Positions 8,209 through 29,031 of a stretch of 37,839 nt of DNA are shown piece by piece. Source of the DNA: a virus (taxonomy: Duplodnaviria > Caudoviricetes); the IMG/VR virus record IMGVR_UViG_3300032216_000935, positions 1 to 37,839 of that record; one strand, written 5' to 3'. The notes beneath the pieces were generated by a model. It was not told the DNA's origin. It did not search any database and saw only the letters and a list, made by a program, of their open reading frames with translations. Made by a program: the position numbers and the translations under genes. The stretch's first letter is position 1, and every line of letters starts with the position of its first letter.

Positions 8209-8352
8209 TCATTTGGCCAAGAGGTACAGGCCCACGTTGGAAAAGGCATAGCCAGCATAGACAATGAACATCGAGGTGTTGCCCTTGAAGGCCTGCTCCA
8301 CAGCGATGTAGCCGTAGATCAAACCGGTGACGCAGATCAGCCAGCCACTCAT
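8209..8352 (-). CDS. Small two-helix membrane protein (47 aa, not in ORF track)
   Basis: MSGWLICVTGLIYGYIAVEQAFKGNTSMFIVYAGYAFSNVGLYLLAK; ATGA-coupled to the phosphoesterase. Confidence 0.7.
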   Translation of the reverse strand: MSGWLICVTGLIYGYIAVEQAFKGNTSMFIVYAGYAFSNVGLYLLAK

Positions 8353-9332
8353 AGTGCGCTCACGTCCAGGACCTCACCGCGGAACTCGATGCGGTCGTCA
8401 TCAAAACGGTGCACGATCTCTGGCCACAGCAGCCGACCATTGTTGAAGGTCAGCACGGCAAAGCCAGAACGCCAGTTCACCGGCGCGTCCTCGAGGTAGT
8501 CGGAGAACTGAGGCCCATCGATCTCGGCCAGCGTGCCGGTGTCGATACCAAACCGGTTGCCGTTGTAGTCGCAATAGGGCGTGACCTTCAGCGAGTGCAA
8601 GTGACCCGTGACCATGGACTTGCCGCTCATGCTGGTGTTGCCATGCGTGGCGTGGATGCCACCTTTCCAGCGGTGCTTGACGATGACGTCCTCGGTCAGC
8701 CAGGCCGACCAGCACATATGCCAGGCCGGGAAGTGGTCGCCCAGCGTGAAACCCTTGACGCCCTGGAACTCTGGCACGTTGGCAGCCAGGCGCGACTCGA
8801 GGCGCATGTCGTGGTTGCCAAGGGTCCACACCAGCTTGGTGTTTCTGCGTGCAGCCTTGGCCGCCTCCTCGATCTCACTGAGCGCCGCCTCGCAGGCCTT
8901 GAGCTCGCCGATGATGGAAGGAGGAGACGCCCATCCGATGCGTGGGTGACGGCTGATCGAGGCGCCGTCGAAAGCATCGCCGCCATTGATGATGGCTTTG
9001 GGTTTGAAAGTGTCGATCGCCCAGAGCAAACCTTTGAAAGCTGTGCTTCGAATTCCTGGCCAGAAGTGAGCGTCGCTAAAACACAACACTGTGCCGTTCT
9101 CGATGCCCAAGTTGTAGCGCGCAGCGTGATGGTGAGCGGTATGCAAGTGCTCAAATTTTTGAGCCCTGTAGTCATCTGCCGCGAGTTTGATCTTGTGTAT
9201 TTGTTCCAAAGATCTGCGTCGACGATAAATATTCGACAGCTCAATGCCGGTGACTTCTCGTATTTTTTTAGCTGACTTGTGGGTGTTCCACAGCTCAATG
9301 AATTCGGCGTCTGATAATTTCGATGCTGGCAT
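8349..9332 (-). CDS. Calcineurin-like metallophosphoesterase with N-terminal HTH-like region
   Basis: SDAH, GGDAFD, GNHD, H, GHLH motifs. Confidence 0.9.
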   Translation of the reverse strand: MPASKLSDAEFIELWNTHKSAKKIREVTGIELSNIYRRRRSLEQIHKIKLAADDYRAQKFEHLHTAHHHAARYNLGIENGTVLCFSDAHFWPGIRSTAFKGLLWAIDTFKPKAIINGGDAFDGASISRHPRIGWASPPSIIGELKACEAALSEIEEAAKAARRNTKLVWTLGNHDMRLESRLAANVPEFQGVKGFTLGDHFPAWHMCWSAWLTEDVIVKHRWKGGIHATHGNTSMSGKSMVTGHLHSLKVTPYCDYNGNRFGIDTGTLAEIDGPQFSDYLEDAPVNWRSGFAVLTFNNGRLLWPEIVHRFDDDRIEFRGEVLDVSAL

Positions 9333-12133: not shown

Positions 12134-15130
12134 TTACCTCGCGAGTGAGTTTTTGAATGGGTTTTCAGCGAAGGCTGCAAAGATGATTGTGTTTCCGCTT
12201 GTAACGCCCCAATCACTTACAGCGACGCGAACCTTGAAACCGTTGGACAGTACATCGACACTAAGACCCGTATTCTCTATGTCAGTTGCGTTTGGAATCA
12301 GCCGACCAGTGGAAAGGTTGTAAGTAGATCGAGCTGTGTCCACAATGTTCCAGTTTCCATTGGAAGCTGTCGCGTCCTTCACAAGAATAAAGCGAGGACG
12401 AAAACCGCAGTAGACAAACGGCCCATCAGCAGACCCGTTGGCCGTGTAGCTGCCAAACTTGGAGTAGCCAGCGACTTCTGCAAAAGCGTAAGCTACAAAA
12501 GTTCTGCCGCTTCCGTTGATACTTGATGCGCCATAACCAAGACCAATGACCGAACTTGTCATTCCAGAAAAGTAACCTGCTGCGGTTCCTGCTGCGGCAG
12601 TTGAATCTAAAATTAAATATTTACTTGCACCAAGCGTACTGCTGTAAACCAACCAATCATCAGCTGTGCTTCTTGTTTTAAAAATAACAAAACTAGGGGC
12701 AACACCAAGTCCATGGCCAGCTGTTTGGCTTGCAGAACCATTACCCGTATAAGTCACCACAGAGAAGCCTTGCGCCGCGCCGGCACTCACCTGAGAAGTG
12801 ATTGAGCCAGCGTTGTTGGTAACAGCAGCGCCGCCAGCTTTCCATTGCCAAGCAACCAACGATTCAGCGCTCTTGTTGACGTTGTTGTTTGCGTCGGCGC
12901 CGACAGAGAAGCCACCAGCATTGAATGAGGTGACGCTGTTTGCGTGTGTGACTTCGGCGTTGGTCAGGTTAGCAAAGATCGCCTGGTTCGCGCCGCGACT
13001 GGAATCGAACAGGATGTTGTTGCCTAAATAGCTGCGGCCCTTTGCCCATATTAGGTCAGGCTGAAATGCGCCGCTGTTGTTGATCGATTGCACTGCACCG
13101 GTGCCGGTGTACAGCGTGGCATCAAAATACTTGTTGCCCGCCTTGATCGTCGCATCAGGCAAGTTCTGCGTGTTCAGCGTTTTGAAGCCTGTGGGTGGGG
13201 TGTAGGTGAAGGGGCGCTGGCCAAAGTTCACATTTGGCGTCAGTGAAGCATTTGAACCGTCGTTGTAGGACATGAAAAACGGCATCATTGGAGCCGCTGC
13301 TGTAAAATATGGACTTGTGCCAGCAGCAGGGTCGCCAGTCCACCACGAACCTTCGTATCCCATCCAACACTTGCCGGTGTCAGCGTCATAGGCAACCATG
13401 AAATTTCTATCGCCAGATGTTGTTGCCCGTGTTGTGGTGTTTACGCTTGCGCCATTGTTGTATAAACCAGTTCCGTAAACAGAAATTGCCGAACGAAACG
13501 ACTGCATCCAACCTTTTGAATTATTTGCTGGTGTGCTTGCAACAGTTGCACCAATCGAAGTTAATGCAATAGATGGTTCTGCAATACCAAACCCAGCAAA
13601 TCGTGCATTCACGTTGTCGTCTGTGACAGTGAATTCCCAATAGTATTTTCCTGATTCCATGGATGCTGTGGCATAGGTTGTGTACCAACCAGAAGCCCCC
13701 GCATTTGTGCTATACAAGTTTCCATTTAAAACAGTTCCCGATGATTTCAACGGGTTCAGAACAGCATAATTCCCCCGCCCATTGCCGCCATCAGCGTACA
13801 TGGTGGGCACGTCAATCATGCTGTCGTAGGTCACGCCAGCAGTCAGCGAGATGTTGTTGGGTGTCCAGTTGTTTGGCGCTGGCACAGTTGTGGTTGGCGT
13901 GTAAGTTGTCGCGGTGGCACTTGCTTCTAGTTGGGCGCCCCAAGCAAACAGACCAGACGTTCCGTCTCCCGTATAAGTAAGCAGGTGCAGGTACGCATAG
14001 ATCGTGTTTGTCGTTAGGCTTGCTGTTGCCGTTGCAGATATTGAACAACGATACCAGCCATTACCAACGGACACTATTGCGCCTGTCGGTGATCCACCAT
14101 CTACGGCGTATGTGCCATTAGACAAGTCAAAACTAATCCGCTGCTCAGTAGTGAAAGCAGCAGACGGGAGTGACAAAAAGATTTTGGATCTTTCGGCTGC
14201 TTTGAAATATCCGCTCGACGTGTAAACCGAACCAGAAACGTATGTTGTGCTGGCATAGATGTAATGGCTGTTGCTTGCAGTTGTATCTTCAACAATTTTG
14301 TCTGCGGTGGCAGTGCCGTTTGGCGCAGTAGTCGCATTTGCAGAAACACTACATCTTGCTTTGCCCCATGAACCATTGTCGAATTGTTCCGAGTACAACA
14401 ACGAGTTTTGCCCAGCCCCATACCCCAGCGACCAGTCATAGCCCAAACTCGTAGTGCTGCTTGGGTCTTTGAACGGCAGGTAAAAGCCGTTGGTGCCGTA
14501 TGTGCCAGCGTACTTCTTGGCCTTCCACACGCCAGTGATGACATCGGTTTCACCAAAGCTCGATGGTGTCAGCGCTTGGCCGTCGATGAAGTTGACTTCG
14601 GTTAGGTAGCCGTCAAAGTAGTATGCACTTATGCGTGTGCTAGAACTAATCCTGTGCGCCGTGGCAGCATTGACCTGAGTGTTCAGGTTTTGAGTTGGGT
14701 ATGTCGAAAAGGCAAACGAAGTGATTGCCTGGCCATTGATGTACAACAAAACGCGGTTTGCGGCTGTGGCTTGAGTGGTATCGATTGCCACGACAACATG
14801 ATACCAAGCAGACGGGTCACGATACACAGCGGTTGAACGAACAACAGCAAGGTTCGATGTGCCATCAAAGATTTGAAAGTTCAAATTGTCTTCAAAGTCA
14901 ATGTAGCACTCAGGACTTCCACCTGTACCGGCTCCAGCGGAAAACAGTTGCTGTTGCCCGAACGAGCCTCGCTTTACCCACCCACTCCATGTCCACTTCT
15001 GTTGATTGCCAGCACCAGCAGGTGTTCGATTGAAATAAGCCGTCGCACTTGCGCGCAGACGCACAGAGCGGCTGATCTGGTAAGCGTCATCACCAGCAAT
15101 CAGGAGTGGGTTGCCGCCTAGGACGCTCAC
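12134..15130 (-). CDS. Large receptor-binding/tail protein (LamG/ConA-like, carbohydrate-binding insert, SPRY-like, C-terminal beta repeats)
   Basis: 'WTWSGWVKRG...RDPSAWYHVVVAIDTTQ', 'YFDGYLTEVNFIDGQAL', 'SGKYYWEF', 'FVYCGFRPRF'; T/S/G/N-rich. Confidence 0.75.
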   Translation of the reverse strand: MSVLGGNPLLIAGDDAYQISRSVRLRASATAYFNRTPAGAGNQQKWTWSGWVKRGSFGQQQLFSAGAGTGGSPECYIDFEDNLNFQIFDGTSNLAVVRSTAVYRDPSAWYHVVVAIDTTQATAANRVLLYINGQAITSFAFSTYPTQNLNTQVNAATAHRISSSTRISAYYFDGYLTEVNFIDGQALTPSSFGETDVITGVWKAKKYAGTYGTNGFYLPFKDPSSTTSLGYDWSLGYGAGQNSLLYSEQFDNGSWGKARCSVSANATTAPNGTATADKIVEDTTASNSHYIYASTTYVSGSVYTSSGYFKAAERSKIFLSLPSAAFTTEQRISFDLSNGTYAVDGGSPTGAIVSVGNGWYRCSISATATASLTTNTIYAYLHLLTYTGDGTSGLFAWGAQLEASATATTYTPTTTVPAPNNWTPNNISLTAGVTYDSMIDVPTMYADGGNGRGNYAVLNPLKSSGTVLNGNLYSTNAGASGWYTTYATASMESGKYYWEFTVTDDNVNARFAGFGIAEPSIALTSIGATVASTPANNSKGWMQSFRSAISVYGTGLYNNGASVNTTTRATTSGDRNFMVAYDADTGKCWMGYEGSWWTGDPAAGTSPYFTAAAPMMPFFMSYNDGSNASLTPNVNFGQRPFTYTPPTGFKTLNTQNLPDATIKAGNKYFDATLYTGTGAVQSINNSGAFQPDLIWAKGRSYLGNNILFDSSRGANQAIFANLTNAEVTHANSVTSFNAGGFSVGADANNNVNKSAESLVAWQWKAGGAAVTNNAGSITSQVSAGAAQGFSVVTYTGNGSASQTAGHGLGVAPSFVIFKTRSTADDWLVYSSTLGASKYLILDSTAAAGTAAGYFSGMTSSVIGLGYGASSINGSGRTFVAYAFAEVAGYSKFGSYTANGSADGPFVYCGFRPRFILVKDATASNGNWNIVDTARSTYNLSTGRLIPNATDIENTGLSVDVLSNGFKVRVAVSDWGVTSGNTIIFAAFAENPFKNSLAR

Positions 15131-16146: not shown

Positions 16147-18804
16147 TTATTCTCCAACGGCTCGCGCCAAGTTTGGTGCACGCATGCCTTCAGTTCCCGT
16201 GCCTGGTGTCCACCAGAACTGCTGGCCAAATTCCTTTTGAGCCCGGCGCTGCATTTGCGACAGGTAGCCGGGGCTGAAATACTCTTGCATTTGATGGAAT
16301 ATTATATGATCCAGCGCCGCTTTTGCGTACCAAAGGTTCGCACCAGGTGTGTTGCCTTTGACGAAACGCACGAGCTCTGCACCGAAGTGCGGATCCTTGC
16401 CCTGCATCGCTTCAATGATGTTGCCCTGCGTGAGCTTGAAGGCCTCTTCGACCAGGCCGGCGACCGGTCCCATGAGTGAGGCAATCGGGCCCGCCTGGTT
16501 GTGCTGCGTCGCGCCAGAAAACAGGAAGTCGCCGTAGAGGCCGAGCGATCCACCCTTGAGGAAAGCAGCCATCCAGTTCTTGGCGCCGTGCTCTCCCTCA
16601 AAGGGGTTGTAGTTGCGGACCTCTTTGCCTGACAGCAGATCGTTGATTGATTGCGACACGGCGCCGAGCACCGTTGTGCCGACGATCAGGCTGCCGAGAT
16701 ACATGGCCTTGCCGCCGGCCGTTTCCATGGAGTTGCCGCGCATCCAGTGGCGCGCGATCATGGCCAAAGGGAAGGCCTTGAACTGGAAGAACGAGCGGGT
16801 GAGCTCACCCTTCCATGTGCCGCGCTCCATGCCTGCGCCCGTCAGGAATTTATCGGTGGCGCCTGGCCGGATTACAGCCATGTCTGTCTCTTCGCCGACC
16901 ACGCCCAGGAGGCGCAGCACGGCATCGCGCTGCGCACGGTCCTGCACGCCGGCGATCTGGTCGTCATAGACCTTGGACCAGTCGGCGATCGAGGCCTGCT
17001 TCTGCTCGGGCGTCATGGCCGACATCTTGTTGATGGCGTCGATCTTGTCCTGCTTCTCGGCCTCGATGCGGGCCTGTTCGCCCTTGATCAGAGGTTCGAG
17101 CTTGGCGGCATCGATGCGCATGATCGATTCGGGCGTGAGCACGCCATTGCCGGCGCCCCATGTCTCGAGCTCGGCCTGCTTCCAGATCTGCCAATCAAGC
17201 TCGGTGATGCCTTTGGACAGCAGGATGCGGTTGTCGGTGGGGTCGATGTCTTTGAGGCCGGCATACTTGCCGACCATCTCGCCCAGCGCGCTCATGTAGG
17301 TGACGCCAAAGGCGCGGCGGCGGGCGCCATCGAGCGCTTCCATGCCTGACGCGCGCATGACCGTGTTGGCCATCTTGGACGAGAACGTGGCGCCCAGGTT
17401 ATCCTGGCCCCAGCGGTTGAGGTGGTTGAGCATCGTGTCGATGCCCAGGCCCGCGCGATGCGCAAGCTGCTCTTCGGTCTTGTTGGCAATGTTGAGGGCC
17501 GACAGTTCGTTCTGGATGAGCTGCATCTCAGGCAAGTTGTTGACGCGGGCCGTCAGGTGCAGCGTCGCCTCATCGGTCAGCGCAGTGATCACGGCCGAAC
17601 CCAGGCGAGACGACACCAGCCAGTTGCGCAGCGTGTCGAAGGTCTGGGCCAGGTGCTCATTGACGATCGGCTGCGTCTTGCCAGTGGTGTAGTCGTAGAG
17701 GCCAGCCAGGCGTCGTTCCTGCTGTTGCATTTTGGAGACATCGCCGGGCGAGGACATGGCGCCCTGCTGCAGTTGTTTTTCCAGGAACAGGTTGAAAGTG
17801 GCGTCGGCATTGGGGCCGAAGGTTTCGAGCATGGCGATCTCTTTGGAGAGCCCCTCGACGTGGCCGGTCATCACGCCCCACAGCGACTTCTCGCCGTACT
17901 TTTCCTGGTAGTCGAGATAGCCCTGCGCGTCTTTGAAATGCAGCTCGCGATGTGCGGCCCGACGGTTGGCCAGCATGCCGCTGCCGGGTGCACCAGGCGT
18001 GACCTGGTTGATGCCACCGGTGGCCAGTGTCAGCCAGGCGCTGCGCAGGACTTCCTGCAACTGCTGGTCGTTCATCTGCGTGCCGTCGTCGTTAATGTAT
18101 TTGCGACGATCGAGCTTGGAAAACACGTCAGCGATCCAGGCCTCGGCGCCGGCCTTGTTGACCTTGACCTGGCTGTGGTGCTGCGGCAGGGCCCAGTTCT
18201 CGAGCTTGCCGATCTTGCCGCCGGCCTGGTTGAACTGTTCGCGCAACTGAGTGGCGACCTCGAGCCAGGCTTCTGCGCCCTTGTCGATAACAGCGTTGCC
18301 GGTCTTCTCACCAAAAATGGCCCTGGTCAGAGTGGCCACGCCTTCCTTGCTTTCAAACAAGCCCCAGAAGCGCGGATCGACAGCCTCGAATGTATCGACG
18401 AGCTGGCGCACGGCATTGGCCTTGATGGCGTTGCCGCGGCTCTCGGCCGACAGGGTGTTGCTCTTGCCATCGGACACGAAAACAAGGGTACGCTTGAGGG
18501 CCTCAAGGCCTGCCATGCCGGTGGCCTTGGCCTCATTGATGAAGCTCTCAAGGCGATCATGCGCCTGGATGGTGAGCGCAATGCGGCGCTTCTTGAGGTC
18601 AGCTTCCTGGACCAGCTCATCGGCTGCGAGCTTGGCGGCCATTTTCAGACGATCGTCGGCGCTCATCGAGCGGAAGAATGCGGGATCGGCCGAGGCCGCA
18701 AAACGCATGTTTTTGACAATGCGCTCCTCGATGCCTTGTGCTTCCTGCTGGGTGATCTCTCGCCCGATCGCGTTGGAAACAGCCTTGATGCAGCGGTCTT
18801 TCAT
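16147..18804 (-). CDS. Internal virion (ejection) protein, large
   Basis: 885 aa helical protein, last core gene before the tail fibre; hydrophobic C-terminal segments. Confidence 0.8.
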   Translation of the reverse strand: MKDRCIKAVSNAIGREITQQEAQGIEERIVKNMRFAASADPAFFRSMSADDRLKMAAKLAADELVQEADLKKRRIALTIQAHDRLESFINEAKATGMAGLEALKRTLVFVSDGKSNTLSAESRGNAIKANAVRQLVDTFEAVDPRFWGLFESKEGVATLTRAIFGEKTGNAVIDKGAEAWLEVATQLREQFNQAGGKIGKLENWALPQHHSQVKVNKAGAEAWIADVFSKLDRRKYINDDGTQMNDQQLQEVLRSAWLTLATGGINQVTPGAPGSGMLANRRAAHRELHFKDAQGYLDYQEKYGEKSLWGVMTGHVEGLSKEIAMLETFGPNADATFNLFLEKQLQQGAMSSPGDVSKMQQQERRLAGLYDYTTGKTQPIVNEHLAQTFDTLRNWLVSSRLGSAVITALTDEATLHLTARVNNLPEMQLIQNELSALNIANKTEEQLAHRAGLGIDTMLNHLNRWGQDNLGATFSSKMANTVMRASGMEALDGARRRAFGVTYMSALGEMVGKYAGLKDIDPTDNRILLSKGITELDWQIWKQAELETWGAGNGVLTPESIMRIDAAKLEPLIKGEQARIEAEKQDKIDAINKMSAMTPEQKQASIADWSKVYDDQIAGVQDRAQRDAVLRLLGVVGEETDMAVIRPGATDKFLTGAGMERGTWKGELTRSFFQFKAFPLAMIARHWMRGNSMETAGGKAMYLGSLIVGTTVLGAVSQSINDLLSGKEVRNYNPFEGEHGAKNWMAAFLKGGSLGLYGDFLFSGATQHNQAGPIASLMGPVAGLVEEAFKLTQGNIIEAMQGKDPHFGAELVRFVKGNTPGANLWYAKAALDHIIFHQMQEYFSPGYLSQMQRRAQKEFGQQFWWTPGTGTEGMRAPNLARAVGE

Positions 18805-18805
18805 C

Positions 18806-21800
18806 TCATCCCCTTAATGCGCAAGCTACCGCTGCGTCGTAGCCTTGTGAGTCTCTCTTTGCTGCTGCGATTTCCGCATCAGCACCGGCAAGAGCACGCG
18901 ATGCGGAGATCATCGTGCCGTCTTCCATGACATAGGTCAGGCCTGGGTTGTTGCGGATGGTGACGTCGGCGCCGTAGGGGTCGGCTCCTCGTCCGGGCTG
19001 ATCGGGTACTGTTTGACCTGCGCCATCCTTTTGAACAGCTCCAGCTCCTTCGCCCGCGCCGGGCTCTCCGGCGTATCGCTGGGCAAGGGTGTCGATGGCT
19101 TGCTTGTTGACTTCGGCTTTTTCGTACCAGGGCGCATTACCAGCCTCCGTGACTTTGAACTTTTTTGGCACAACGCCATTTTCCGGCGATTTTACCGCAG
19201 CCAGGAACTCTCGGAAAGCAGGAACCGTGAAGCGATACTCGCCGCCGGTCGGTGTGTTGTACAGGAAATATGGCGTGCCCGATGCGTCGCGGCCATAGCG
19301 GGCCCCGTAGGCATAGGCGCCATACTCACCCTCTTTGGCAGTAACTTCGGCGATCTTGTGGCCGTCACCCTTGGCATCGTGCAAGATCGCGTCCAGCGTG
19401 CCGTGGCTGGCCTCCTGCTGGCTGTCAGCGACCCAGGTTTCCCAGTGATAGCGGCCGATGCTGGCATCTTCTGGACGGCCGAGCGAGGCATAGATGTTGT
19501 CGATGCGCTTGGCCAAGGCGCGCTCGATTGCTTCGTAGATCAGGAGGCCGCGGGCGCCGTAGCTGATTTCACTCAGCGCAGAGCCGGCCACGGGTTTGCC
19601 CTCTTCCTTGCGGCCGTCGTAGAGGTTGCGATCGCCAAAGCGGCCATCGTCCCAGAGCTGACGGATCTGCACGCGGTCGAGCACCATCAGGTCCTTGAAG
19701 CCGGCGACCAGGAGCGTAAACGACACGACCTTGTTGTCGATGCCCACACCTTCGGCGTTTGTGATGAACCAGCGACGCAACTGCTGGCCGGTCATGTTGG
19801 GGTCTTCCATCATGTTGTGCATGGTCTGCAGCAACGAGACGCCGTTCTCGTCCTTCTGTCCCATCTTGAAGAGGAACAGGCGGCCAAAGGCGTTGAGGTT
19901 ATGCGTAGCGCCAGATCCTGGCTGGCCGGATCCCTGCGGTGCGACCGACTTGGCCCAGGCCTCGTATGCGGGGAAGTCAGCCTCGGTCAAATTGCCGTCG
20001 GCAGCCTTCTTGATCCACTGGCCGGCGCCCTTGAAACCATCGATGAACAGGCCTTCTTGCGTGTAGGGGCTGACGCCGCGCGACAGGAAGGACCACATGA
20101 AGAGCTTGCCGGTGGTTTCGACATCGAGCTGCTTGGCGGTGTAGGCCTCTCGAAAGGCGGCCGCGTTTTCAAAGCCGTGTTGCGCGTCAGAGATCTGGCC
20201 AGGCGACAGGCGTGCCAGGTTGTTGTGGGCGCCGTCTGAATTGATGTCCTTGAGGAAGCGATAAGGCGGCACAGGCACATCGTCGGTGGCCATGGCATAG
20301 GCCATCATCTTCGACCACTCGAGCGGTGACGTATCGGCGTCAGGGAACTTTGCCAGGATGTCGTCGATTGCGCCGATCTGGCGGGCTGCGTTTTTCTTGT
20401 TTGTGCCTGTTAGGATCAGTGGCTTTTCAGGCAGCTTGATGTCGCCCATGTCGACCTTGACGCGCAGGTCAGGTTCAAAACCGTTGAGGTTGGCGGCGCC
20501 CACGTTCGTGCCAGGCTGCTCGACGTTGGGGAAAATCTTGCCGTAGGCGAGCTGATTGCCGGTGAGAGTGCCGTCAGCTTTGAGTACCGCATCAAGGCCA
20601 CGGATGACGGCTGCGTCACTTTTCAGGCCAAAGACGTCCTTGGCTTTCTCGATCAGCTCTTTGACCCATTGCACGGCCTGCTTGACCCATCCCTCGTTGG
20701 CGCGCTCGCGCACAATCTTGGAGGCGTTGACGGCCCAGAATTCTGAGGGGTTCACGAGCTGGTAGAAATTCATGTCGACCAGGCCCTGCTTGACCATGTC
20801 GACGACGCGCGCGTGTGCAGCCGAGTCGCCCATGTTGGCGCGCAGCACATCGTGGATCGCGAGCTTGAGATCGAGGCTGCCGGATTGCTCGGCCATGCGG
20901 GTGACGCGGCGCACCTCGGCCAGCCAGGCTGCATTGATGGCTTTGCGCACCGGCTCTGGCATCATGCGCTCGGCGTGGTGCAAGATTTCGTGAGCAATGG
21001 TCAGCGGATCACCTGCGCCTCTGAAAAGAGTGACCAGCTTCTTGAGTGGCTCGTATTCACCGCCGACATTGCCGTCCACGCTGTCGCGAATCGACAGGCC
21101 CAGGCCTTCGGCAAGGTTGGGGTTTTTCTCAAGCAGCCACTTGGCCAAACCCACAGCCTCGGGCGGCAGTTCGCCGGTGCGCTCTGCGCGGGTGAGGCGC
21201 TCGGTGAACCACAGCGGACCACGCACGCGGTCGCCGGATCGCTTGTCGGCATTGTTGGCAGAGCGAACGTCCAGGCGCTCCTTCAATCCTTCAAGCTCGG
21301 TGATCAGGCGCTCGGTTGGCCAGTTTTCCTTGGTGGCGCGCTCGACCATTTTGCCGATGTCGGAGCCAACATAAATCGGCTCTGAGCGGATGCGGTCGGT
21401 GATGCTGTAGAGCGTGGTATCAGACGGCAGGCCGCGGTTCTCGAGCTCGATCTTCAGAGATTGCCAGTCGGCGCCAAGATGATCCTCGACCGCATTGACG
21501 ACGCCATTGCGTGTCTCCACTGCGACAGGGTTCTCAATAAAATTTGCCTTGGTGACGGCGTCTCCCACATCGACGGGTCGGCCGGCGAGCAGGTCTTCGA
21601 TCGTTTTGTTGATCGCCTCGACGTGCGCGTTGCGTGCGGCTGGATCTGTCGGGATGCCTGGTGCTGTGCCTGTTTCGAGGTGCGAGGCGTTGTTGAGCGC
21701 CATGGCTGCGGCCAGGTCAGAAGGCTGTGCCTTGGGCGGGTTGCCGTGGAACATCTTTTCGTAGCCGTGGATGCCGCCGGCAAACAGCGAGCCGATCGCA

Positions 21801-22603
21801 AAGTCGCTGGCGATCTCGCCGATGTCAAAGGCCTCATATTGTTTGGCCATGTCGGTGTAGCCGGCATTGTTCAAAACTTCGGCCGTGATGCCTCGGGTTG
21901 GGATACCGGTTGCAGCCTGCAGCAGGCCGCCTGTCGCGATCTTGGCGCCCGTGTTGCTGGCAATGGTGGCAGTGGCTGCGCCAGCGCCGTAGAGAGCGCC
22001 TGCGGTCCTTGTGGCGCCTGCCACTTCGGCTTGCATGCCCTTGGCCATCAGGCCAACCGCCATGCCCTTTGTAACCGTCACAGGCAGGAAAGCGCCAAGG
22101 AAAGTTGAGAAGCCAGAGATCGCGCCCATCTTAGCCGCGGTGGTGTCGTCCAGGCCTTCAAACTGGCCCATGCGATAGCCTTTGTAGGCCTGCGCACCAG
22201 AAGCCACAGCGACACCAGCAAGCGGGTTTCCTGTCGTCACAGTGCCGACAGCCACGTCACCCAGGACGTTGCCGGCGCCATAGACCACATTGCCCAGCCA
22301 GCCCACGGTTTCCCGATCGGGGGTCCAGCGGTGCATGGCATCGTGGGTCTTTTGCTGCTCACTGAGCAAATAGCCCTGAACATCGGTCTTGAAGAGTTGA
22401 TCGATTTTCTTCGCGCCAGGCATGAGATATGGCGTGGCCGCATCAGCCAGCGGCATGGCAAAATCGTTGAGTGTGGACCCAACAGCCTCGACGGCAGCGG
22501 TCGGGATCCCGGAAAAGAACCCGGCCTTTTTCTCAGTTGGCGGCATCAGGGCGGCAAAAGCCTCCTGGTTGGCCATGTCGTTCGATGAGGCAAAGAGGTT
22601 CAT
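18806..22603 (-). CDS. Internal virion protein carrying zincin metallopeptidase and HhH-GPD (OGG2-like) glycosylase domains
   Basis: Ejection-gene position; Gly/Ala hydrophobic N-terminal region; 'AHEILHH...PSEFWA'; 'GIDNKVVSFTLLVAGFKDLMVLDR'. Confidence 0.75.
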   Translation of the reverse strand: MNLFASSNDMANQEAFAALMPPTEKKAGFFSGIPTAAVEAVGSTLNDFAMPLADAATPYLMPGAKKIDQLFKTDVQGYLLSEQQKTHDAMHRWTPDRETVGWLGNVVYGAGNVLGDVAVGTVTTGNPLAGVAVASGAQAYKGYRMGQFEGLDDTTAAKMGAISGFSTFLGAFLPVTVTKGMAVGLMAKGMQAEVAGATRTAGALYGAGAATATIASNTGAKIATGGLLQAATGIPTRGITAEVLNNAGYTDMAKQYEAFDIGEIASDFAIGSLFAGGIHGYEKMFHGNPPKAQPSDLAAAMALNNASHLETGTAPGIPTDPAARNAHVEAINKTIEDLLAGRPVDVGDAVTKANFIENPVAVETRNGVVNAVEDHLGADWQSLKIELENRGLPSDTTLYSITDRIRSEPIYVGSDIGKMVERATKENWPTERLITELEGLKERLDVRSANNADKRSGDRVRGPLWFTERLTRAERTGELPPEAVGLAKWLLEKNPNLAEGLGLSIRDSVDGNVGGEYEPLKKLVTLFRGAGDPLTIAHEILHHAERMMPEPVRKAINAAWLAEVRRVTRMAEQSGSLDLKLAIHDVLRANMGDSAAHARVVDMVKQGLVDMNFYQLVNPSEFWAVNASKIVRERANEGWVKQAVQWVKELIEKAKDVFGLKSDAAVIRGLDAVLKADGTLTGNQLAYGKIFPNVEQPGTNVGAANLNGFEPDLRVKVDMGDIKLPEKPLILTGTNKKNAARQIGAIDDILAKFPDADTSPLEWSKMMAYAMATDDVPVPPYRFLKDINSDGAHNNLARLSPGQISDAQHGFENAAAFREAYTAKQLDVETTGKLFMWSFLSRGVSPYTQEGLFIDGFKGAGQWIKKAADGNLTEADFPAYEAWAKSVAPQGSGQPGSGATHNLNAFGRLFLFKMGQKDENGVSLLQTMHNMMEDPNMTGQQLRRWFITNAEGVGIDNKVVSFTLLVAGFKDLMVLDRVQIRQLWDDGRFGDRNLYDGRKEEGKPVAGSALSEISYGARGLLIYEAIERALAKRIDNIYASLGRPEDASIGRYHWETWVADSQQEASHGTLDAILHDAKGDGHKIAEVTAKEGEYGAYAYGARYGRDASGTPYFLYNTPTGGEYRFTVPAFREFLAAVKSPENGVVPKKFKVTEAGNAPWYEKAEVNKQAIDTLAQRYAGEPGAGEGAGAVQKDGAGQTVPDQPGRGADPYGADVTIRNNPGLTYVMEDGTMISASRALAGADAEIAAAKRDSQGYDAAVACALRG
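18937..19137 (-). CDS. Putative overprinted small ORF (66 aa) nested in the ejection protein gene
   Basis: Alternate frame; GGAGG 6 nt before ATG; the host frame becomes a low-complexity linker over part of it. Confidence 0.45.
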   Translation of the reverse strand: MRPGTKKPKSTSKPSTPLPSDTPESPARAKELELFKRMAQVKQYPISPDEEPTPTAPTSPSATTQA

Positions 22604-25230
22604 TTTGTGTTGGGCGTTTGGGTGATCGGTTTGCCTTTGGCGCCAACAGCTTTGGTCGGATCAACGGCAGGACGTGCAGGTGGTGCAATGTTACCTGTGA
22701 CGTCGAGCACGATCATCTTGCCATCGTTGTCGCGCATGTAGCCCGTGCCATCGAGGACGCGGTAGCCGTCGCCGTAGTTTTCCAGGCCATGCGAGAAAAA
22801 GCTCGCTTGACTGCCAACACGTCCAAGCTCGACCATCTTGGCGTCAAACGCCTGCTTGGCTTTGTTGACAAATGTGTCCTCCATCATTCCCCAGGGACGA
22901 CGCACCGTGCTGCTGTTGACGTCGGTGGCGCCGCCGGTCACCGCTTCGATCGCTGTGCGCAGGCGCGTGCTGTCAAGGTTGCCGGAATAGTCGGAGGCCT
23001 GCTCTGAGGCTGCGGCGTAATAGGCTTTCACAGATTGCTTGGCCACGTTGTAGCCATCCCGCTGCTGGCCGGTGAAGGTCTTGCCGATGCTGCCGTTAAA
23101 CTGGGTGTCAAAGTCCTGCTCTTTGGGCAGCAGATTGAGCCTGGGTTTGCCGTCTTCACCCTTGGCGTTCTTGCTGGGATTGATCAGCTCCTCACCGCGC
23201 ATGATCATCGATGCGACGACCTGCGGGTTGTAAGACAGCTCGTTGCTGAAGACGCCGCCAGGACGAATGACGTTTTTTTCGTTCATGGTCACGAGCTTGC
23301 CGGCCACCGCGGAGACAGGGCTGTCTGGCGCGATCTGCTGCATGACAGCGTGCAAGGCATCCTGGTTGGGAATGGCTTTGGCGATCGTGCCAAAGTAGGC
23401 GAGCTTTTGCGGGGCGCTCATGGTGTTGAGGCCGGCTGCCAGGTTGCTGGCCTCGCCTTTGGTCAAGAGCTGATAAGGCGCCTTGAACGTGCCGGTCATG
23501 GTGGCTGCGACACCGACGCGGTTCTTGAGTTCGGCCATCGCCTTTTCGTTGTCGTTCCAGTTGATTGTGTTGACCGGAGCGGCCTTGCTGTCGATGGCGT
23601 ACTGGATCGGATCGGTGTTGCGTGCCGTGGTGACGCGGTTGGCTGCCTCTTGCATCGCCGCATAGCGCTTGTTCGCCAGGTCATAACCGGGCTTGGAGGC
23701 GTCGGGCTGGTACTTGTTGACGGCTGCCAGCATTTCCTCTGGCGTCTGCAGCTTCATGGCGTTCATGTCGACGCCCATCTGGCCGATCTGCTGGTACTGG
23801 GCATAGCGCTGTGGTCCTTCGACCGGGCCATAGGCCTTGCTGTACTCCTGTTCAGTCAGTGGCTTTTGCACGGCCTGGCCGTTCATGTAGGCCGCGACGT
23901 GATCGTTTTCGGTGGTGGCCACCTGGCTGCGATAGGTCGACTGCACACGGTTCATTTCGGTCTGCGCTTCGCTGATGAAAGCAGGCGCCCGATCGGTGTC
24001 GAGCATGGCCACCATCATGGACAGGCTTTCTGGGACCTTGACCTTGGGACCTGATGCTGACGCGCCAGCAGTGCCGCCGCCGTAATTTTTACGAATGCGG
24101 TCAACGTGTTCGGCGATCGTGCCGTTGCCATCGCTGGCTGTCTCTGACACGTTTCGGTTGCCGCCGTTGACGATCTTGTACATCGTCTTGAGGTCGTCGC
24201 CTGGCTGCACGCCGCGTGCCTTGAGGTACTTTTCCACAGCAACCATCTGCTGCTCAAAGGTCTGCTGCTGGTTTGCACCAAAGGCTTTTTGCTCGGCCTC
24301 GCCAAACTGGATCAGGCCGATGTGCTTGTTGTTCTTGCCGCCGCGCTTGGATGGGTCGAACGTGCCGCCTGTCTCATAGCCAATGATGGCCTGCAGATCC
24401 TGGGCAGAGACGCCGAGCCGGCCGGCCACTGCCGTGATCGACTCGGAGGCTGCGGGTGTCAGGTTGGGATTTGGCTTTGCAGGTCCATTGACAGTGGCAA
24501 GCTGGCCTTCGGTCACGCCAAAGCGCTCGAGCAAAGCAGCGCGGGTCAGCGATGGATCGCGCTTCATGGCGCCGGTGACGGCCGCCTCGACGATCGACTT
24601 CTGGGCAGCGAGCGCCGCGGTGTTGCGCGTGTGCTCATCAAGGCCTGAATTGGCCACGAGCTCCTTGGCTGATTTCAAATTGGTAGCTGCTGCATCGAGG
24701 TCGAGTGCTGCGCCAGCGGTGTAGGTCTTGACCGTCTCGCCGATCTTGTCGAGCTTGTTGTTGACCACCATCGTGGCCTCGGACGTCAACGAATGGCGGT
24801 AAGTGTTGACCCAGGTGCTGTCGAGTTGGTTTGACGCATAGTTGCGGACCTTCTCGTTGGGGATCTTGTCAAGAAAGCCCTGGCGGTAGGTCGCCCACTC
24901 TTCTTTGAGCTGCTGGGTCAATGGCTTGAACGTGCCATCATCCTGCGGAACCATGCCACCATTGACGGCTTTCTTGGACAGCTCGGTGACGCGGTTCGGC
25001 CACTCGACCGATGCGTTGGCGAGATCCGGCCCCATGTTGTTGATGGCCCTCTCTGTCTCGCGCTTTTGCTCGAGGTGAAAGTTGGTTGCCGCAAAATCCA
25101 TTCCGGCATTGCCGAGGTTTTGCAAGCCGCGGCCAACGGCGTCCGAGATCTCGGCTGGCCGAAAGTTTGGGCTTGGACCTGCACCTTGTGGAACCAGGCG
25201 GTCTTCGTAGGTTGGGATTTTGACTGCCAT
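22600..25230 (-). CDS. Internal virion protein with lysozyme-like/lytic transglycosylase domain
   Basis: 'LQAIIGYETGGTFDP...HIGLIQFG...FEQQMVAVEKYL' in mid-protein. Confidence 0.8.
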   Translation of the reverse strand: MAVKIPTYEDRLVPQGAGPSPNFRPAEISDAVGRGLQNLGNAGMDFAATNFHLEQKRETERAINNMGPDLANASVEWPNRVTELSKKAVNGGMVPQDDGTFKPLTQQLKEEWATYRQGFLDKIPNEKVRNYASNQLDSTWVNTYRHSLTSEATMVVNNKLDKIGETVKTYTAGAALDLDAAATNLKSAKELVANSGLDEHTRNTAALAAQKSIVEAAVTGAMKRDPSLTRAALLERFGVTEGQLATVNGPAKPNPNLTPAASESITAVAGRLGVSAQDLQAIIGYETGGTFDPSKRGGKNNKHIGLIQFGEAEQKAFGANQQQTFEQQMVAVEKYLKARGVQPGDDLKTMYKIVNGGNRNVSETASDGNGTIAEHVDRIRKNYGGGTAGASASGPKVKVPESLSMMVAMLDTDRAPAFISEAQTEMNRVQSTYRSQVATTENDHVAAYMNGQAVQKPLTEQEYSKAYGPVEGPQRYAQYQQIGQMGVDMNAMKLQTPEEMLAAVNKYQPDASKPGYDLANKRYAAMQEAANRVTTARNTDPIQYAIDSKAAPVNTINWNDNEKAMAELKNRVGVAATMTGTFKAPYQLLTKGEASNLAAGLNTMSAPQKLAYFGTIAKAIPNQDALHAVMQQIAPDSPVSAVAGKLVTMNEKNVIRPGGVFSNELSYNPQVVASMIMRGEELINPSKNAKGEDGKPRLNLLPKEQDFDTQFNGSIGKTFTGQQRDGYNVAKQSVKAYYAAASEQASDYSGNLDSTRLRTAIEAVTGGATDVNSSTVRRPWGMMEDTFVNKAKQAFDAKMVELGRVGSQASFFSHGLENYGDGYRVLDGTGYMRDNDGKMIVLDVTGNIAPPARPAVDPTKAVGAKGKPITQTPNTK

Positions 25231-25231
25231 A

Positions 25232-25729
25232 TCAGGACATCATCTTTCCGGTCGTGTTGTAGTACGAATATTTCGTCGCACCCGACAGCAGCGCCGATCC
25301 GGCATTCAGATAGCCAGCCGTCTGGGCGTTGGACGCATTCATCTTGTTCACGCCGGCATTGAAAGTATCGAGCTGCGCTTGTGACTGCAGACCCTTGGAT
25401 TTGTTGTCGCCCTCGTAGCGGATGGTCAGCGAGTCGAGCTCATTGGCGATGGCATTCTGCTTGAGCACATCGAGGTTGCTGCCATCAAAGCCGGTGCCAG
25501 ATTGTGCGATGCCGGCAGCAGCTTGTCCCTGCAGCACAGCAAAGTGACGACGTTGCGCCTCTTCCTGGGCATTGGCCTGATCTGATGCGACCTGGGCATT
25601 GTTGCGGTTGACGGTGGCGTTGTATTCGTTGGCCTGCGCCTGCGCCCGATAGTTGGCCGCCTGTGCGTCGGCCTGTTGCATAGCGCCAACAGCCCCCATG
25701 GCGGCCGAAGCAATCATCATGACTTCCAT
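25232..25729 (-). CDS. Small internal virion protein (T7 gp14-like position)
   Basis: Ala/Gln/Asn-rich, 'QGQAAAGIAQSGTGFDGS'; first core gene. Confidence 0.75.
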   Translation of the reverse strand: MEVMMIASAAMGAVGAMQQADAQAANYRAQAQANEYNATVNRNNAQVASDQANAQEEAQRRHFAVLQGQAAAGIAQSGTGFDGSNLDVLKQNAIANELDSLTIRYEGDNKSKGLQSQAQLDTFNAGVNKMNASNAQTAGYLNAGSALLSGATKYSYYNTTGKMMS

Positions 25730-26154
25730 TATTGAACCCTCGCGTAAAGTTCGCAGTCGCGGCCATCGGGCGTGAACGACCGCATGCGGCCCTCGCGCTC
25801 AAAACCAAGCATTTTTGCCCAGCGGTGACCCTGCTCAAAGTCGCAAGCGACCGATGTTTCGATGCGGCGAAAGGGATGGATCTCCATCGTGCGCAGCACC
25901 GCCTTGTGTATGACCCTGAAGTGAGGACCGGATTCTTTGGAAATGAGGCCCCAGGCCACGGCCCGGTGCTCCCATTGCTTGATCAAACCCATTGATGCCA
26001 AAACCTCATCACCGTCGACGAGCGAATAGGCAGGGCCTGCTTGGTGCAGGCTGTGCGCATATTCTGGTTTCGACAATGTTTCTTGCATGATGGCCTGGCT
26101 CGGTTGCAGAAGCAGCAGCTTCAAATGGTTGGGTTCAAACGGGACAATCCTCAT
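25729..26154 (-). CDS. GNAT-fold protein (T7 gp13-like position)
   Basis: 'RRIETSVACDFEQGHRWAKMLGFEREGRMRSF'. Confidence 0.75.
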   Translation of the reverse strand: MRIVPFEPNHLKLLLLQPSQAIMQETLSKPEYAHSLHQAGPAYSLVDGDEVLASMGLIKQWEHRAVAWGLISKESGPHFRVIHKAVLRTMEIHPFRRIETSVACDFEQGHRWAKMLGFEREGRMRSFTPDGRDCELYARVQ

Positions 26155-28430
26155 CGATCGAAAGTGTGGAGTTGGGGCATGATCGCCACCACCGTCATCG
26201 GCAAAGGCTGATCCTGTTTGACTGTCACATAGCCGTCGAAGTCATAGCCACCGGGCCACTCCATGAGCTTGTCTCCGGTGAACAACGGCGGCGCCTGGTC
26301 CATCAGGTTGGAACCCGTGCGGAACTCGATGTTGTCGAGCGTCGACGTGTCGGGACCAGCCTTTGCACCGAGCGTATTGTAGAAGCGAATGACCACTTTG
26401 TTGATGCGTTTCATCTTGCCTTGCGCGGTTCCATCACCGGCGCCAGCTTCAATGCGGGTCGTCTTTAATGTGGCAGGGCAGCCCAGGCCCACCTGCACGA
26501 CCGAGGCGGGGATCTGCAGAGTAATAACGCCAGACGTGACTACGCGATCGGGATGTGCTGCACCATCGGCAAGCACTTGCACGGTCTGGCCTTCAAGGTA
26601 GCTCAAGCCTGAGATCGTGGTGGCCGGTGCGCCAGAATAGGTTGCACCGCTGTCGACGTAGAAGCACGAGGACTGCAGGTCGCCTGTCTGATATTCGCGC
26701 TCGAGATATTCGACATATCGCTTGGTCGAGCCGTTAATCGTGCGCTTGACGATGAGCCAGAGCTCGTCGCGGTCGCGGTTGGGACCAGGGATCACGCAGA
26801 CCGATTCGACAATGCCGTTGCCGCCGATCGTGTGGCCATGCCAGCCCAGCACGTCCTGTTCTTTGTTGAAGGTGAAGCCCAACAGCTTGCCGTCGCCGCG
26901 AGCCGCCCACATGGCCACATAGGGCTCCTTGTGCCAGGTCGTCTGCACCAGGCCGCTGGAAGTGATGTGTTCGGCCAGCACGGTCAGGTCGTTGGTAATG
27001 TAGCCGTTCTGCTGGAAGCTGTAGGCAGCTTCCTTGAGCTTGCGGCCAGAGCGCTGCACGAACAGCGTGGAATAGCCCACCGACACCGGGATCACTGAGC
27101 GCGAGCCCTCGGCCGTCTGCTTCTCGATCTTGACGTTGCCGGGCGCAAATGCCTCATTGGATGTGTTCTCGCTGCAGGCGAATTCAGCACCGGACGTGCC
27201 GATCAGCAGCGCCTGCGTGGGCGCCAGCCATTGCACCTGGTTGACCTGGTCAGACGAGATCGTGACCTGGATGGCGCGATCGGCAACGATTTGGCCGCTG
27301 TCGTCCTTGGATGCAAAGTTTTCAAAGTCGCCGGCCACCGAGAAAAAGAGTTGTTGACCTTTGGCCAGCGTCAGGCGCTCGCGGAAGAAGCAGACCTTGC
27401 TGGGATAGCCCTCGACCGCGGAGAACGAGCCAAAGGCCCAGCGGAAGGTGGCAGCAGAAACGACGCCGGACGGCAGCGGGTTGTTGCCCTGCACGACGGC
27501 TGTGACGTGCGTCGAGTCGGTGTAGGCGGTGATCTTGGCATAGCCATAGCCAGAATCGACAAATTGCCAGTCGAGGCCCTGGCGCTCGCAGGTCGTGCCT
27601 GAAATGCCCTGGTAGTCGCCATCGGCCTGCGTGCCGTAGGTGTGGATCGGCTTGTCGGGACCGGTGCGCCAGACCTTGCCAGACGATGGCGTGCCGTTGG
27701 TCGTGCAGATGTAGGTCTTGCCGTCGCTGCGGCGATAGGTGTTGACCGGATTGGTCGAATATTCCTGGCCCGCGGTCCATGGCTTGATGGCCGACAGATC
27801 GGCCGGCTCGAGGTAGACGAATGTGCCCACCATCGAGGCCGTGAAAGGCGTGTGGCCGGATGCTGTCAGCGTGATCGTGCCGGTCGTGGCGCTGGCCTGG
27901 ATCGTCTGCGAGCGGGTGATGTTCTGGGTCTTGAAGGGACCGTTGGTGAGCGGCGCCGCGGCGATCGTCCAGTTGGTATTGCCCAGGCGCGACAGCTTCT
28001 GCAGCGGGTAGCTGGGGTGCGCGATGTAGATCACATCACCCGACTGCACCATGGACAAAGTGAACGTGCCATCAGCGCTGTCGGTCAGGTCGGCCACAGC
28101 ATAGGGCGAGGTGATCTCGTAAGGCGAGCCACCCGACAGCACCTGGCCGTGATTGGTGTAGAAGCGGATGTATTGGTTGCCGAACTCCAGCACATAGGCC
28201 TGGGTCGTGTTGAATTCAAACTTGGCCAGCCAGGTGCGGTTGGCTGATGTCTTTATCTCGGAGACGTAGCGCGTGCCGGCACGACGCACGGCTGGGCCCT
28301 GCACCGAGGGAATAAAGTTGTCGAGGATCGAGCAGCCGTTGTTGTATTTGGCAACGTCGGTGCGACCGCCCATGAGCGGCGACAGCTCGCCGGCATTAAA
28401 GGATGAGCGTAGGGGTGAGGCCTTGGGCAT
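26151..28430 (-). CDS. Tail tubular protein B (nozzle)
   Basis: Start MPKASPLRSSFNAGELSP; 'GYPSKVCFFRERL', 'QDQPLPMTVVAI'; follows tubular A. Confidence 0.9.
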   Translation of the reverse strand: MPKASPLRSSFNAGELSPLMGGRTDVAKYNNGCSILDNFIPSVQGPAVRRAGTRYVSEIKTSANRTWLAKFEFNTTQAYVLEFGNQYIRFYTNHGQVLSGGSPYEITSPYAVADLTDSADGTFTLSMVQSGDVIYIAHPSYPLQKLSRLGNTNWTIAAAPLTNGPFKTQNITRSQTIQASATTGTITLTASGHTPFTASMVGTFVYLEPADLSAIKPWTAGQEYSTNPVNTYRRSDGKTYICTTNGTPSSGKVWRTGPDKPIHTYGTQADGDYQGISGTTCERQGLDWQFVDSGYGYAKITAYTDSTHVTAVVQGNNPLPSGVVSAATFRWAFGSFSAVEGYPSKVCFFRERLTLAKGQQLFFSVAGDFENFASKDDSGQIVADRAIQVTISSDQVNQVQWLAPTQALLIGTSGAEFACSENTSNEAFAPGNVKIEKQTAEGSRSVIPVSVGYSTLFVQRSGRKLKEAAYSFQQNGYITNDLTVLAEHITSSGLVQTTWHKEPYVAMWAARGDGKLLGFTFNKEQDVLGWHGHTIGGNGIVESVCVIPGPNRDRDELWLIVKRTINGSTKRYVEYLEREYQTGDLQSSCFYVDSGATYSGAPATTISGLSYLEGQTVQVLADGAAHPDRVVTSGVITLQIPASVVQVGLGCPATLKTTRIEAGAGDGTAQGKMKRINKVVIRFYNTLGAKAGPDTSTLDNIEFRTGSNLMDQAPPLFTGDKLMEWPGGYDFDGYVTVKQDQPLPMTVVAIMPQLHTFDR

Positions 28431-28431
28431 C

Positions 28432-29031
28432 TCAGATCCTCGAGATGATCCAGGTGTTGTCGGGCGGTGTCGATGGCGGGCGTTCGATCGAGTTGGTGCG
28501 GATCGCCTGGGTGATCGCGCGCTTGTAATCGTTGGCCGCCGAATTCTTTTTGGTGTCGGATTGCGTGAGATCCTCGCAGATTTCCATGGCAATGCGGGAC
28601 GCCATGGCTTCTCTGAAGTTGACGTCCCAGTTGTTGGGGTCCTCGATGCGCGCAACGTAGCGCAGCTTCAAGGGTGCGGCGATGTCGGTCAGGATGAGGT
28701 TGCCCTCGATCATGTAGTCCTGGGTTTCGACGCCGATGTAATTGTCCAGCACGACGGTCGGGAACTCGTCGTTGATCATGTCCAGGCGCAGGAAGTCAGG
28801 CGGCAAAGCATATTGCAGGTTGTAGCCAAACAAAGGCGCGCTGGAGAGCGCAGCCATGGAGGTGCGCTTCATCGAGAATTGCCAGCGGTGTGCGCGCAGC
28901 TCGTCGTCGCGAATGTCCTCAAAACAAGACGCGATCGAGCGCGCCGCTTTCACGTCATCAGAAAGAGACGTGATGCGGTTGGCGCCGAGCTTGGTCAGCG
29001 CACGGTTGGCGACCTGAATGACTGAGGCCAT
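28432..29031 (-). CDS. Tail tubular protein A (adaptor)
   Basis: 'VANRALTKLGANRITSL...ELRAHRWQFSMKR...YALPPDFLRL'. Confidence 0.88.
   Translation of the reverse strand: MASVIQVANRALTKLGANRITSLSDDVKAARSIASCFEDIRDDELRAHRWQFSMKRTSMAALSSAPLFGYNLQYALPPDFLRLDMINDEFPTVVLDNYIGVETQDYMIEGNLILTDIAAPLKLRYVARIEDPNNWDVNFREAMASRIAMEICEDLTQSDTKKNSAANDYKRAITQAIRTNSIERPPSTPPDNTWIISRI

Follow-up and report, generated by a model that had tools for sequence, protein, structure and literature searches.

A predicted OGG2-fold DNA glycosylase module in an internal virion-type protein of uncultured podoviruses

The locus and its 1265-residue protein

IMG/VR record IMGVR_UViG_3300032216_000935 is a 37.8-kb virus record, analysed here over its whole length of 37,839 nucleotides (the window), whose genes are those of a podovirus with a temperate lifestyle: terminase, portal, capsid, tubular tail, nozzle, internal virion, tail fibre and lysis genes, together with an integrase and RecET. 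Homology and gene order place one of its open reading frames (ORFs), of 1265 residues on the minus strand (18806..22603), in the slot occupied by epsilon15 gp16 and phiV10 p19, as a polyvalent protein of the internal virion type. Within this protein lies a module that is predicted to adopt the fold of the OGG2 DNA glycosylases, with a highly conserved lysine/aspartate pair and a base pocket in which all the residues that read 8-oxoguanine (8-oxoG) in OGG2 are replaced.

The protein is built from several parts. The N-terminal structural domain (residues 1-400; 21404..22603) matches phrog_1145 and is around 30% identical to genes of SPN1S, phiV10 and Tyrion; PHROGs match residues 13-370 only, and the protein as a whole has no Pfam match. 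This is followed by a zincin-like metallopeptidase-type domain (residues 430-700; 20504..21316), assigned on its motif only and with no Pfam match, where HEILH (538-542) and Glu621 form an HExxH...E arrangement that is kept across 52 homologues. That region also shares 38% identity with a stretch of the giant DarB-like protein found in the Erwinia phages PEp14 and Pavtok. The glycosylase module (residues 705-1185; 19049..20491) consists of an N-extension, the OGG2-fold core and a C-subdomain. Structural alignment of the predicted model superposes the HhH-GPD core (residues 783-1070; 19394..20257) on OGG2, and within it are found the helix-hairpin-helix (HhH; 19700..19777) with the predicted nucleophile K958 (19730-19732) and Asp956 in place of the second hairpin Gly, the predicted catalytic D976 (19676..19678), H1053 with the stacking W1057 (19433..19447), and a Q1063/E1064/H1067 motif (19403..19423) at the place of the C-terminal Lys sensor of OGG2. 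A small beta-sheet/helix C-subdomain (residues 1084-1180; 19064..19354) and a C-terminal tail (18809..19006) complete the chain. All of these features lie on the minus strand. A first-pass annotation had placed an OGG2-like domain at 19430..20490, and the glycosylase fragments it quoted are indeed present (19430-20491, residues 705-1058); the module, however, extends beyond that interval as far as roughly 19049, and the conserved motif Q1063/E1064/H1067 falls just outside the interval.

Predicted fold, catalytic pair and base pocket

In sequence terms the likeness to OGG2 is weak. A hidden Markov model (HMM) of 18 OGG2 proteins, for which the ORF was recovered from 18 of 20 loci, gives 4.6 bits at residues 939-984, a score reached by none of 2000 shuffles (best 2.2), so that the motif is more than chance; the pattern G-x-G-x3-K-x17-D-R arises in 5 of 20000 shuffles. 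Comparison with OGG2 by hhalign gives E=0.21-0.23, the family profile finds MjOgg as its best match in the PDB (E=0.029), and Pfam Ogg-HhH recognises 7 of 51 family members (best E=0.0028), the window protein not being among them. Neither phmmer nor a broader alignment profile finds any match in the PDB, DUF7178 has no Pfam match among the 51 family members at E<=1, and the window protein scores 10.7 bits with PRK01229 against a curated cut-off of 183. Sequence alone was set aside as proof of kinship to OGG2, being weak in phmmer, hhalign and the broader alignment.

It is the predicted fold that settles the OGG2-type assignment. An AlphaFold2 model of the module, built with 51 sequences (pLDDT 87.6, pTM 0.84), has the six-helix barrel and the helical domain with an HhH motif that are the hallmark of the HhH-GPD superfamily. 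The top seven Foldseek rows are all OGG2 chains, with E values of 0.0017-0.047 and none below 0.001. VIA-align over 48,161 chains gives TmOgg as best (Z 15.5, root-mean-square deviation 3.2, 207 of 209 residues), the four OGG2 entries lying at Z 14.9-15.6 with 201-207 residues aligned, followed by hOGG1 (10.3), EndoIII-3 (10.2), and ROS1 and Qng1 (both 9.3); the top 22 rows are HhH-fold enzymes. AGOG is found at Z 5.7-6.0 and PaMx11 gp46, of the phage amino-acid:DNA transferase type, at Z 4.2. ESM Atlas points to Ogg-HhH clusters, as a lead only. The fold named by the first-pass annotation was thus recovered, with OGG2 on top. When folded alone the C-subdomain has no clear structural counterpart: the highest Z is 3.2, and a number of PC4/Pur rows (Z 2.5-2.8) are a lead only. 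Some uncharacterised phage proteins (BFVD A0A6J5LC27 and A0A6J7WE55; ESM Atlas clusters) weakly match the core fold, and further HhH cargo families probably exist among phage proteins.

Conservation was assessed over 291 full modules, drawn from 316 matched proteins (25 were left out for partial cover), with identities as low as 36%. K958 is found in 291/291 and D976 in 290/291, and the two lie 18 residues apart, as do K129 and D147 of MjOgg (alignment numbering); the catalytic pair and the spacing put forward earlier therefore both hold. Since this invariant Lys/Asp pair sits in a predicted OGG2-type fold, the module is likely to be a DNA glycosylase with apurinic/apyrimidinic (AP) lyase activity. 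Two relatives stand apart: P0270 departs at pocket positions 962, 965, 979 and 1063 and may be a specificity variant, and P0275 has Gly for the catalytic Asp, which may reflect a dead copy or an alignment effect.

The residues of the pocket are equally fixed. W837, S841, E850, N902, H1053, W1057 and H1067 are each present in 291/291 modules, Q1063 in 290/291 and E1064 in 267/291, the last giving way to Val in 20/291. Counting from the catalytic residues, K+4 is Phe (F962; 290/291), K+7 is Leu (L965; 289/291), K+8 is Val, Ala, Leu or Met (Val966 in the window; 291/291) and D+2, residue 978, is Val or Ile (291/291), and most relatives have Asp where the second hairpin Gly would be. In the OGG2 set His at K+4, Arg at K+7, Asn at K+8, His at D+2 and the guanine-edge Asp are each invariant (18/18), and 18/18 ORFs end in Lys. 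The guanine-edge Asp (MjOgg D194, AfOgg D185) is His (H1053) in 291/291 modules, in a register taken from sequence, and the stacking Trp (OGG2 W198) is retained as W1057. OGG2 residue 207 closes the alignment at S1066/H1067, and the window chain extends a further 200 residues or so.

The part these residues play in OGG2 has been described. N7-H of 8-oxoG is read by the carboxylate of the C-terminal Lys, and OGG2 from which this Lys has been removed no longer excises but still has lyase activity (PMC3397491); the carboxylate acts with the Arg at K+7, the Asp and the His at K+4, and the His at D+2 binds phosphate (PMC13490550). Each of the three OGG subfamilies is reported to have its own N7-H acceptor and all to keep Asp or Gln on N1/N2 (PMC3397491), with Arg or Lys at K+7 in both OGG2 and AGOG (PMC9638937, PMC13490550). 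The module shares with OGG2 (TmOgg 3n0u, MjOgg 3fhf/3knt, SsOgg 3fhg; PF22175, PRK01229) the two-domain fold, with no OGG1 A-domain, the Lys/Asp spacing, the stacking Trp and a Y-x3-E helix. It differs in being only 12-18% identical, in having insertions of about 85 residues and N- and C-extensions, in lacking the C-terminal Lys, in being fused into a virion-type protein, and in the substitutions Asp194>His, His133>Phe, Arg136>Leu, Asn137>Val and His149>Val/Ile. With the 8-oxoG sensor, the guanine-edge Asp and the His/Arg/Asn network all replaced by equally conserved residues, the module is not an OGG2 member; the earlier label OGG2-like stands for the fold and not for an 8-oxoguanine enzyme. 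Because two OGG2 carboxylates are replaced by His1053 and His1067, the target base would probably lack the donor edge of guanine, and the pocket predicts a new base specificity. AGOG, with Lys and Asp 32 residues apart, a long second helix, Lys at K+7 and Asp on N1/N2 (PMC9638937, PMC3397491), has only the Phe at K+4 in common with the module, where the spacing is 18 and the other two positions are Leu and His. A His at a similar helix position is seen, matched by eye, in 3 of 6 Nth/MutY-type proteins.

Could the module nonetheless repair 8-oxoG, or formamidopyrimidine guanine (FapyG), in the incoming genome, with E1064, Q1063 and H1067 reading N7-H and H1053 the Watson-Crick edge in a fourth kind of OGG pocket? 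OGG2 is the closest fold by a wide margin. OGG pockets do vary: L965 falls at the non-basic position of hOGG1, and the N7-H acceptor differs between the three subfamilies. F962 is likewise the AGOG Phe at K+4 (PMC9638937). Such an enzyme is nevertheless unlikely when the Asp/Gln on N1/N2 and the Arg/Lys at K+7 have both been lost, when E1064 can be Val, and when OGG2 without its C-terminal Lys no longer excises 8-oxoG (PMC3397491). Another chemistry on the same fold, whether limited to AP sites, as a lyase or a covalent clamp, or that of a nucleoside hydrolase/transferase in the manner of Qng1 or the phage amino-acid:DNA transferases, is very unlikely, as OGG2 fits far better than Qng1 or gp46 and the invariant W837, F962, H1053, W1057 and H1067 imply base reading; this is despite the appearance of both proteins in the fold list, the Val/Ile in place of the phosphate-binding His, the Asp at the second hairpin Gly and the C-truncated OGG2 that has lyase and no glycosylase activity (PMC3397491).

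The module as mobile cargo of a virion slot

Nearly all of the 120 homologues listed cover residues ~705-1185, and the remainder of the protein is found in less than half of them, so that this stretch is a mobile unit. A profile of the module finds 450 cluster representatives (50% identity) at E<=0.001, 325 of them at E<=1e-30, and in IMG/VR it is present in 355 of 380 candidate stretches, in proteins of 350-5000 residues. Its occurrence is sporadic, with one case in 80 loci fetched by the nozzle gene (many of those loci being short). Prokaryote genomes hold 4 loci among 185,579, all on small contigs of metagenome-assembled genomes (MAGs), a search of plasmids with a 167-residue part of the module found nothing, and there is no Pfam, PHROG or NCBIfam entry for it. 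No intact stand-alone short form exists among 24 shorter matches, each of which covers at most 36% of the module; a few proteins of 440-580 residues hold little else and may be truncated gene calls. Among 8 orthologous genes the glycosylase core is 75-89% identical, with pN of 0.08-0.17 against pS of 0.39-0.48, the structural N-domain is 37-55% identical, and in 8/8 no part of the gene is under tighter constraint than the core. The invariant residues, together with a core pN far below pS, point to an enzyme-like site under selection. Homologues carry insertions of 30-100 residues near 860-900 and 1000, and at 19830-19993 of the window a close relative has an in-frame segment longer by 174 nucleotides.

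The company that the module keeps is that of the phage polyvalent proteins. When 28 carriers were scanned, ART-PolyVal was found in 9 (6 over the cut-off), others had LPD22/23/38, GNAT or a methyltransferase, and 18 had no match; one carrier protein (L082:7781-12376) combines InPase, a methyltransferase domain and the glycosylase module. ART-PolyVal, LPD22/23/38, DdrB-ParB, InPase and GNAT are all partners common to polyvalent proteins, which also share with the window protein, as does the DarB-like protein of PEp14, an MPTase-type HExxH (a motif only here), shuffled enzymatic cargo and a virion-gene context (PMC5512222). On these sequence features the window protein is a member of that group. 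Its peptidases have been proposed to free cargo after injection, and its cargo is described as mostly conflict-related (Iyer et al. 2017, PMC5512222).

The slot itself is recognisable from its surroundings. The N-domain matches 42 cultured-phage records, SPN1S and phiV10 included, and in phiV10 the annotation of this gene notes a similarity to epsilon15 gp16; with phiV10 p19, of the Uetakevirus type, it shares 33% identity over 280 residues as well as gene order, p19 being 600 residues long and having neither the peptidase-like domain nor the glycosylase. The order of genes is that of phiV10 p14-p20 and epsilon15 gp11-17, namely the nozzle followed by two small and three large internal genes. 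Upstream, T7 gp14-like, IVP-A-like (internal virion protein A) and nozzle genes (25232..28655, minus strand; domain and PHROG matches) open the ejection block. The protein then sits between an 876-residue gp15-type internal virion protein (phrog_992; 22600..25230, minus strand) and an 885-residue gp17-type (IVP-D) virion protein (phrog_684; 16147..18804, minus strand), both assigned by PHROG match and gene order. Hardies et al. (PMC4819975) give epsilon15 gp15/gp16 as IVP-C and gp17 as IVP-D candidates, and epsilon15 is reported to eject internal proteins (Swanson et al., PMC8954989). The ejection-protein locus proposed by the first-pass annotation is thus borne out.

Two relatives in the gp16 slot have other contents. 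In place of the peptidase and glycosylase, L117 (6702-9998) has DdrB-ParB with a weak RelA/SpoT-like match and L107 (9698-13411) has DdrB-ParB with a Zeta-toxin-like kinase domain; L117 is 69% identical to the window in gp17 and 75% in the nozzle. Because both keep the N-domain and the C-tail and differ in what lies between, the glycosylase module is swappable cargo held by two anchoring parts. Slot cargo such as DdrB-ParB, Zeta-like and RelA/SpoT domains needs cytoplasmic substrates. From homology and gene order it is likely that the 1265-residue protein is packaged and ejected with the phage DNA. That the module instead stays behind and acts in the producer cell, in late infection or packaging, is scarcely probable: a folded 480-residue module would have to unfold to pass the tail, but it is flanked by two parts kept in virion-type relatives, has no stand-alone form among the shorter matches, and has ejected-enzyme precedents in the N4 virion RNA polymerase and T4 Alt (PMC5512222).

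A number of other features of the region were recorded. The nozzle ORF (26151-28655) has a TTG start that is probably too early, homologues starting at about residue 76. The variable middle of the gp15-type protein (22600-25230) has a weak phrog_21656 match at residues 265-343, and that of L117 (3583-6702) a GH108 lysozyme. A 998-residue tail protein (12134-15130) with Laminin_G_3 and DUF7483 has a GC content of around 50%, compared with about 60% elsewhere, and its stretch is likely a swapped receptor-binding module. A metallophosphoesterase gene (8349-9332) adjoins the integrase, and a DUF5856/phrog_858 gene (32503-32955) lies between the portal and scaffold genes.

Whose DNA, and for what purpose

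On whose DNA would such an enzyme act? Markers for modification of the phage's own genome (FolE, TGT, PurZ-like and thymidylate-synthase-like) were each found in 0/50 carriers, 20 of which are at least 90% complete, with the limit that DpdA may escape the TGT profile. Carriers with modified genomes of their own were rejected on this count, and their DNA shows, at the level of gene content, no sign of modification. N6/N4 methylases are present in 0/50 carriers and 3/48 controls, which is no real difference, and the notion that carriers exclude such methylases was set aside for that reason. A sequence-specific 'restriction glycosylase' was also rejected, as no 4-mer is avoided across 47 carrier loci relative to 10 non-carriers. 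In the window itself the 6-bp site AAGCTT is absent (0 against 26 expected), CACGTG, AACGTT, ACATGT and CAATTG are likewise 0 each, CAGCTG occurs 4 times against 41 expected and GGTCTC is also avoided; this avoidance of restriction-type palindromes points to host restriction systems.

One possibility is that the module meets host-made marks, such as methylated or ADP-ribosylated bases, either in counter-defence on its own DNA or in an attack on host DNA. The slot and its partners are in keeping with this, with a DarB-like protein and ART-PolyVal beside the module in several carriers, as are the absence of methylases from the carriers and the presence of ROS1, a 5-methylcytosine (5mC) glycosylase, among the fold matches. 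The methylase count is undone by its control, however, an ART domain is missing from the window protein, the carrier loci avoid no 4-mer, and the temperate lifestyle (an integrase in the window and in 9/50 carriers) speaks against damage to the host chromosome, so that host marks are distinctly unlikely as the target. With host attack disfavoured, clean-up of the phage's own DNA or attack on that of a rival is left.

Attack on a rival has a parallel on the host side in Dag1, an HhH glycosylase that destroys modified phage DNA and needs Asp184 and Trp188 (bioRxiv 10.1101/2025.10.29.685425). An injected counterpart would excise a non-canonical base (2-aminoadenine, for instance, or some modified pyrimidine; 7-deazaguanine is less likely). 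Co-infecting phages with base-modified DNA would thereby lose their genomes, and the canonical DNA of the injecting phage would be spared. In common with Dag1 and Dag2 the module has an HhH fold, a Lys-Asp pair and a stacking Trp outside housekeeping repair and in a setting of phage-host conflict, its carriers have none of the four modification markers, and polyvalent cargo is mostly conflict-related. Yet the Dags, as described, are stand-alone host genes in defence islands that diverge fast (identity between families is typically less than 20%), retain the guanine-edge Asp and cleave 7-deazaguanine DNA, whereas the module is phage-encoded, fused and slow-changing, and has His at the place of the Dag1-required Asp in 291/291, in a register inferred from D-x3-W spacing, so that the K/D/D/W pocket of the Dags is not found. 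PADLOC 2023, a release that predates the Dags, gave 0/48; the comparison with them here is with their description. The handful of prokaryotic loci, the few copies and brief action of an injected protein and the frequent co-infection required also count against a weapon, which is rather unlikely. The fuller proposal, that widespread podovirus-injected base-excision enzymes with a His/His pocket serve against co-infecting genomes with bases such as 2-aminoadenine, is a little more doubtful still. The preprint itself, in the text available, only speculates on virion-packed countermeasures. As a working assignment based on the model, the module may be regarded as an OGG2/Nth-type bifunctional glycosylase that is not a member of OGG2, AGOG or, on the tested residue, the Dags.

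Own-DNA repair is favoured because the module changes slowly and is without the Asp that Dag1 needs, and a slow, fixed sequence would suit a chemical lesion that stays the same more than a target in an arms race; the margin over attack on a rival is modest. The missing modification markers and the avoidance of restriction-type palindromes in the window are likewise in keeping with the phage's own, canonical DNA as target. The preferred reading, a tentative one, is that the ejected module, as a bifunctional DNA glycosylase/AP lyase, clears the phage's own incoming DNA of some lesion other than 8-oxoG. The protein would be expressed late, together with the structural genes, and be packaged into the head by means of its gp16-type N-domain and tail, as homology and gene order suggest, and then be ejected into the cytoplasm, where, following Iyer et al. 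2017, the HExxH domain would perhaps release the module. In the predicted fold the HhH would bind DNA with the base flipped between F962 and W1057, and by analogy with the family K958 and D976 would excise the base and nick the AP site. H1053, H1067, Q979 and Q1063 would take the places of the guanine-reading residues, two carboxylates and the Arg/Asn, and with these gone the base is likely to be an adenine-type or pyrimidine lesion acquired while the virion is extracellular. Host AP endonuclease, polymerase and ligase would then complete the repair, ahead of early transcription and of replication. Two phage enzymes, T4 endonuclease V (DenV) and phage UvdE, are made after entry and are not virion cargo, and their folds differ. 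Like the enzyme proposed here, they serve excision repair in the DNA of the phage that encodes them (PMC7824862).

Several points weigh against repair of the incoming genome. Hosts normally have base excision repair (BER) enzymes of their own, so that the gain from injecting a glycosylase is not obvious, and nicking the incoming DNA, of which there is a single copy, is risky. The absence of modification genes also fits attack on a competitor, and the base rate of such genes in these phages is low. The matching of the pocket relies on sequence register and the end points of structural alignments, and 8-oxoG could still be the substrate if a side chain, that of E1064 or Q1063, took over from the missing carboxylate. 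The module is found in 0 of 50,697 cultured-phage records. Finally, Swanson et al. (PMC8954989) number the epsilon15 ejection proteins gp11-13, unlike Hardies et al.

Injected phage cargo is known for DNA methylation, protein ADP-ribosylation and early-gene transcription, and base excision is not described among it in the literature searched; no account of a glycosylase domain as virion or ejected cargo was found there, in agreement with the first-pass annotation, and the word 'glycosylase' has 0 occurrences in the main text of Iyer et al. 2017 (PMC5512222). The module is common in uncultured podoviruses, as its 450 clusters and 355 IMG/VR stretches indicate. If it is active and attacks rivals' modified DNA, it would mirror the Dag/Brig defences from the phage side, in the form of a delivered protein with a His/His pocket unlike that of characterised glycosylases. 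A new base specificity could also serve as a tool to map the base concerned. If it is active and repairs the phage's own DNA, virions would bring with them a repair kit for extracellular damage, which bears on the survival of phages in the environment.

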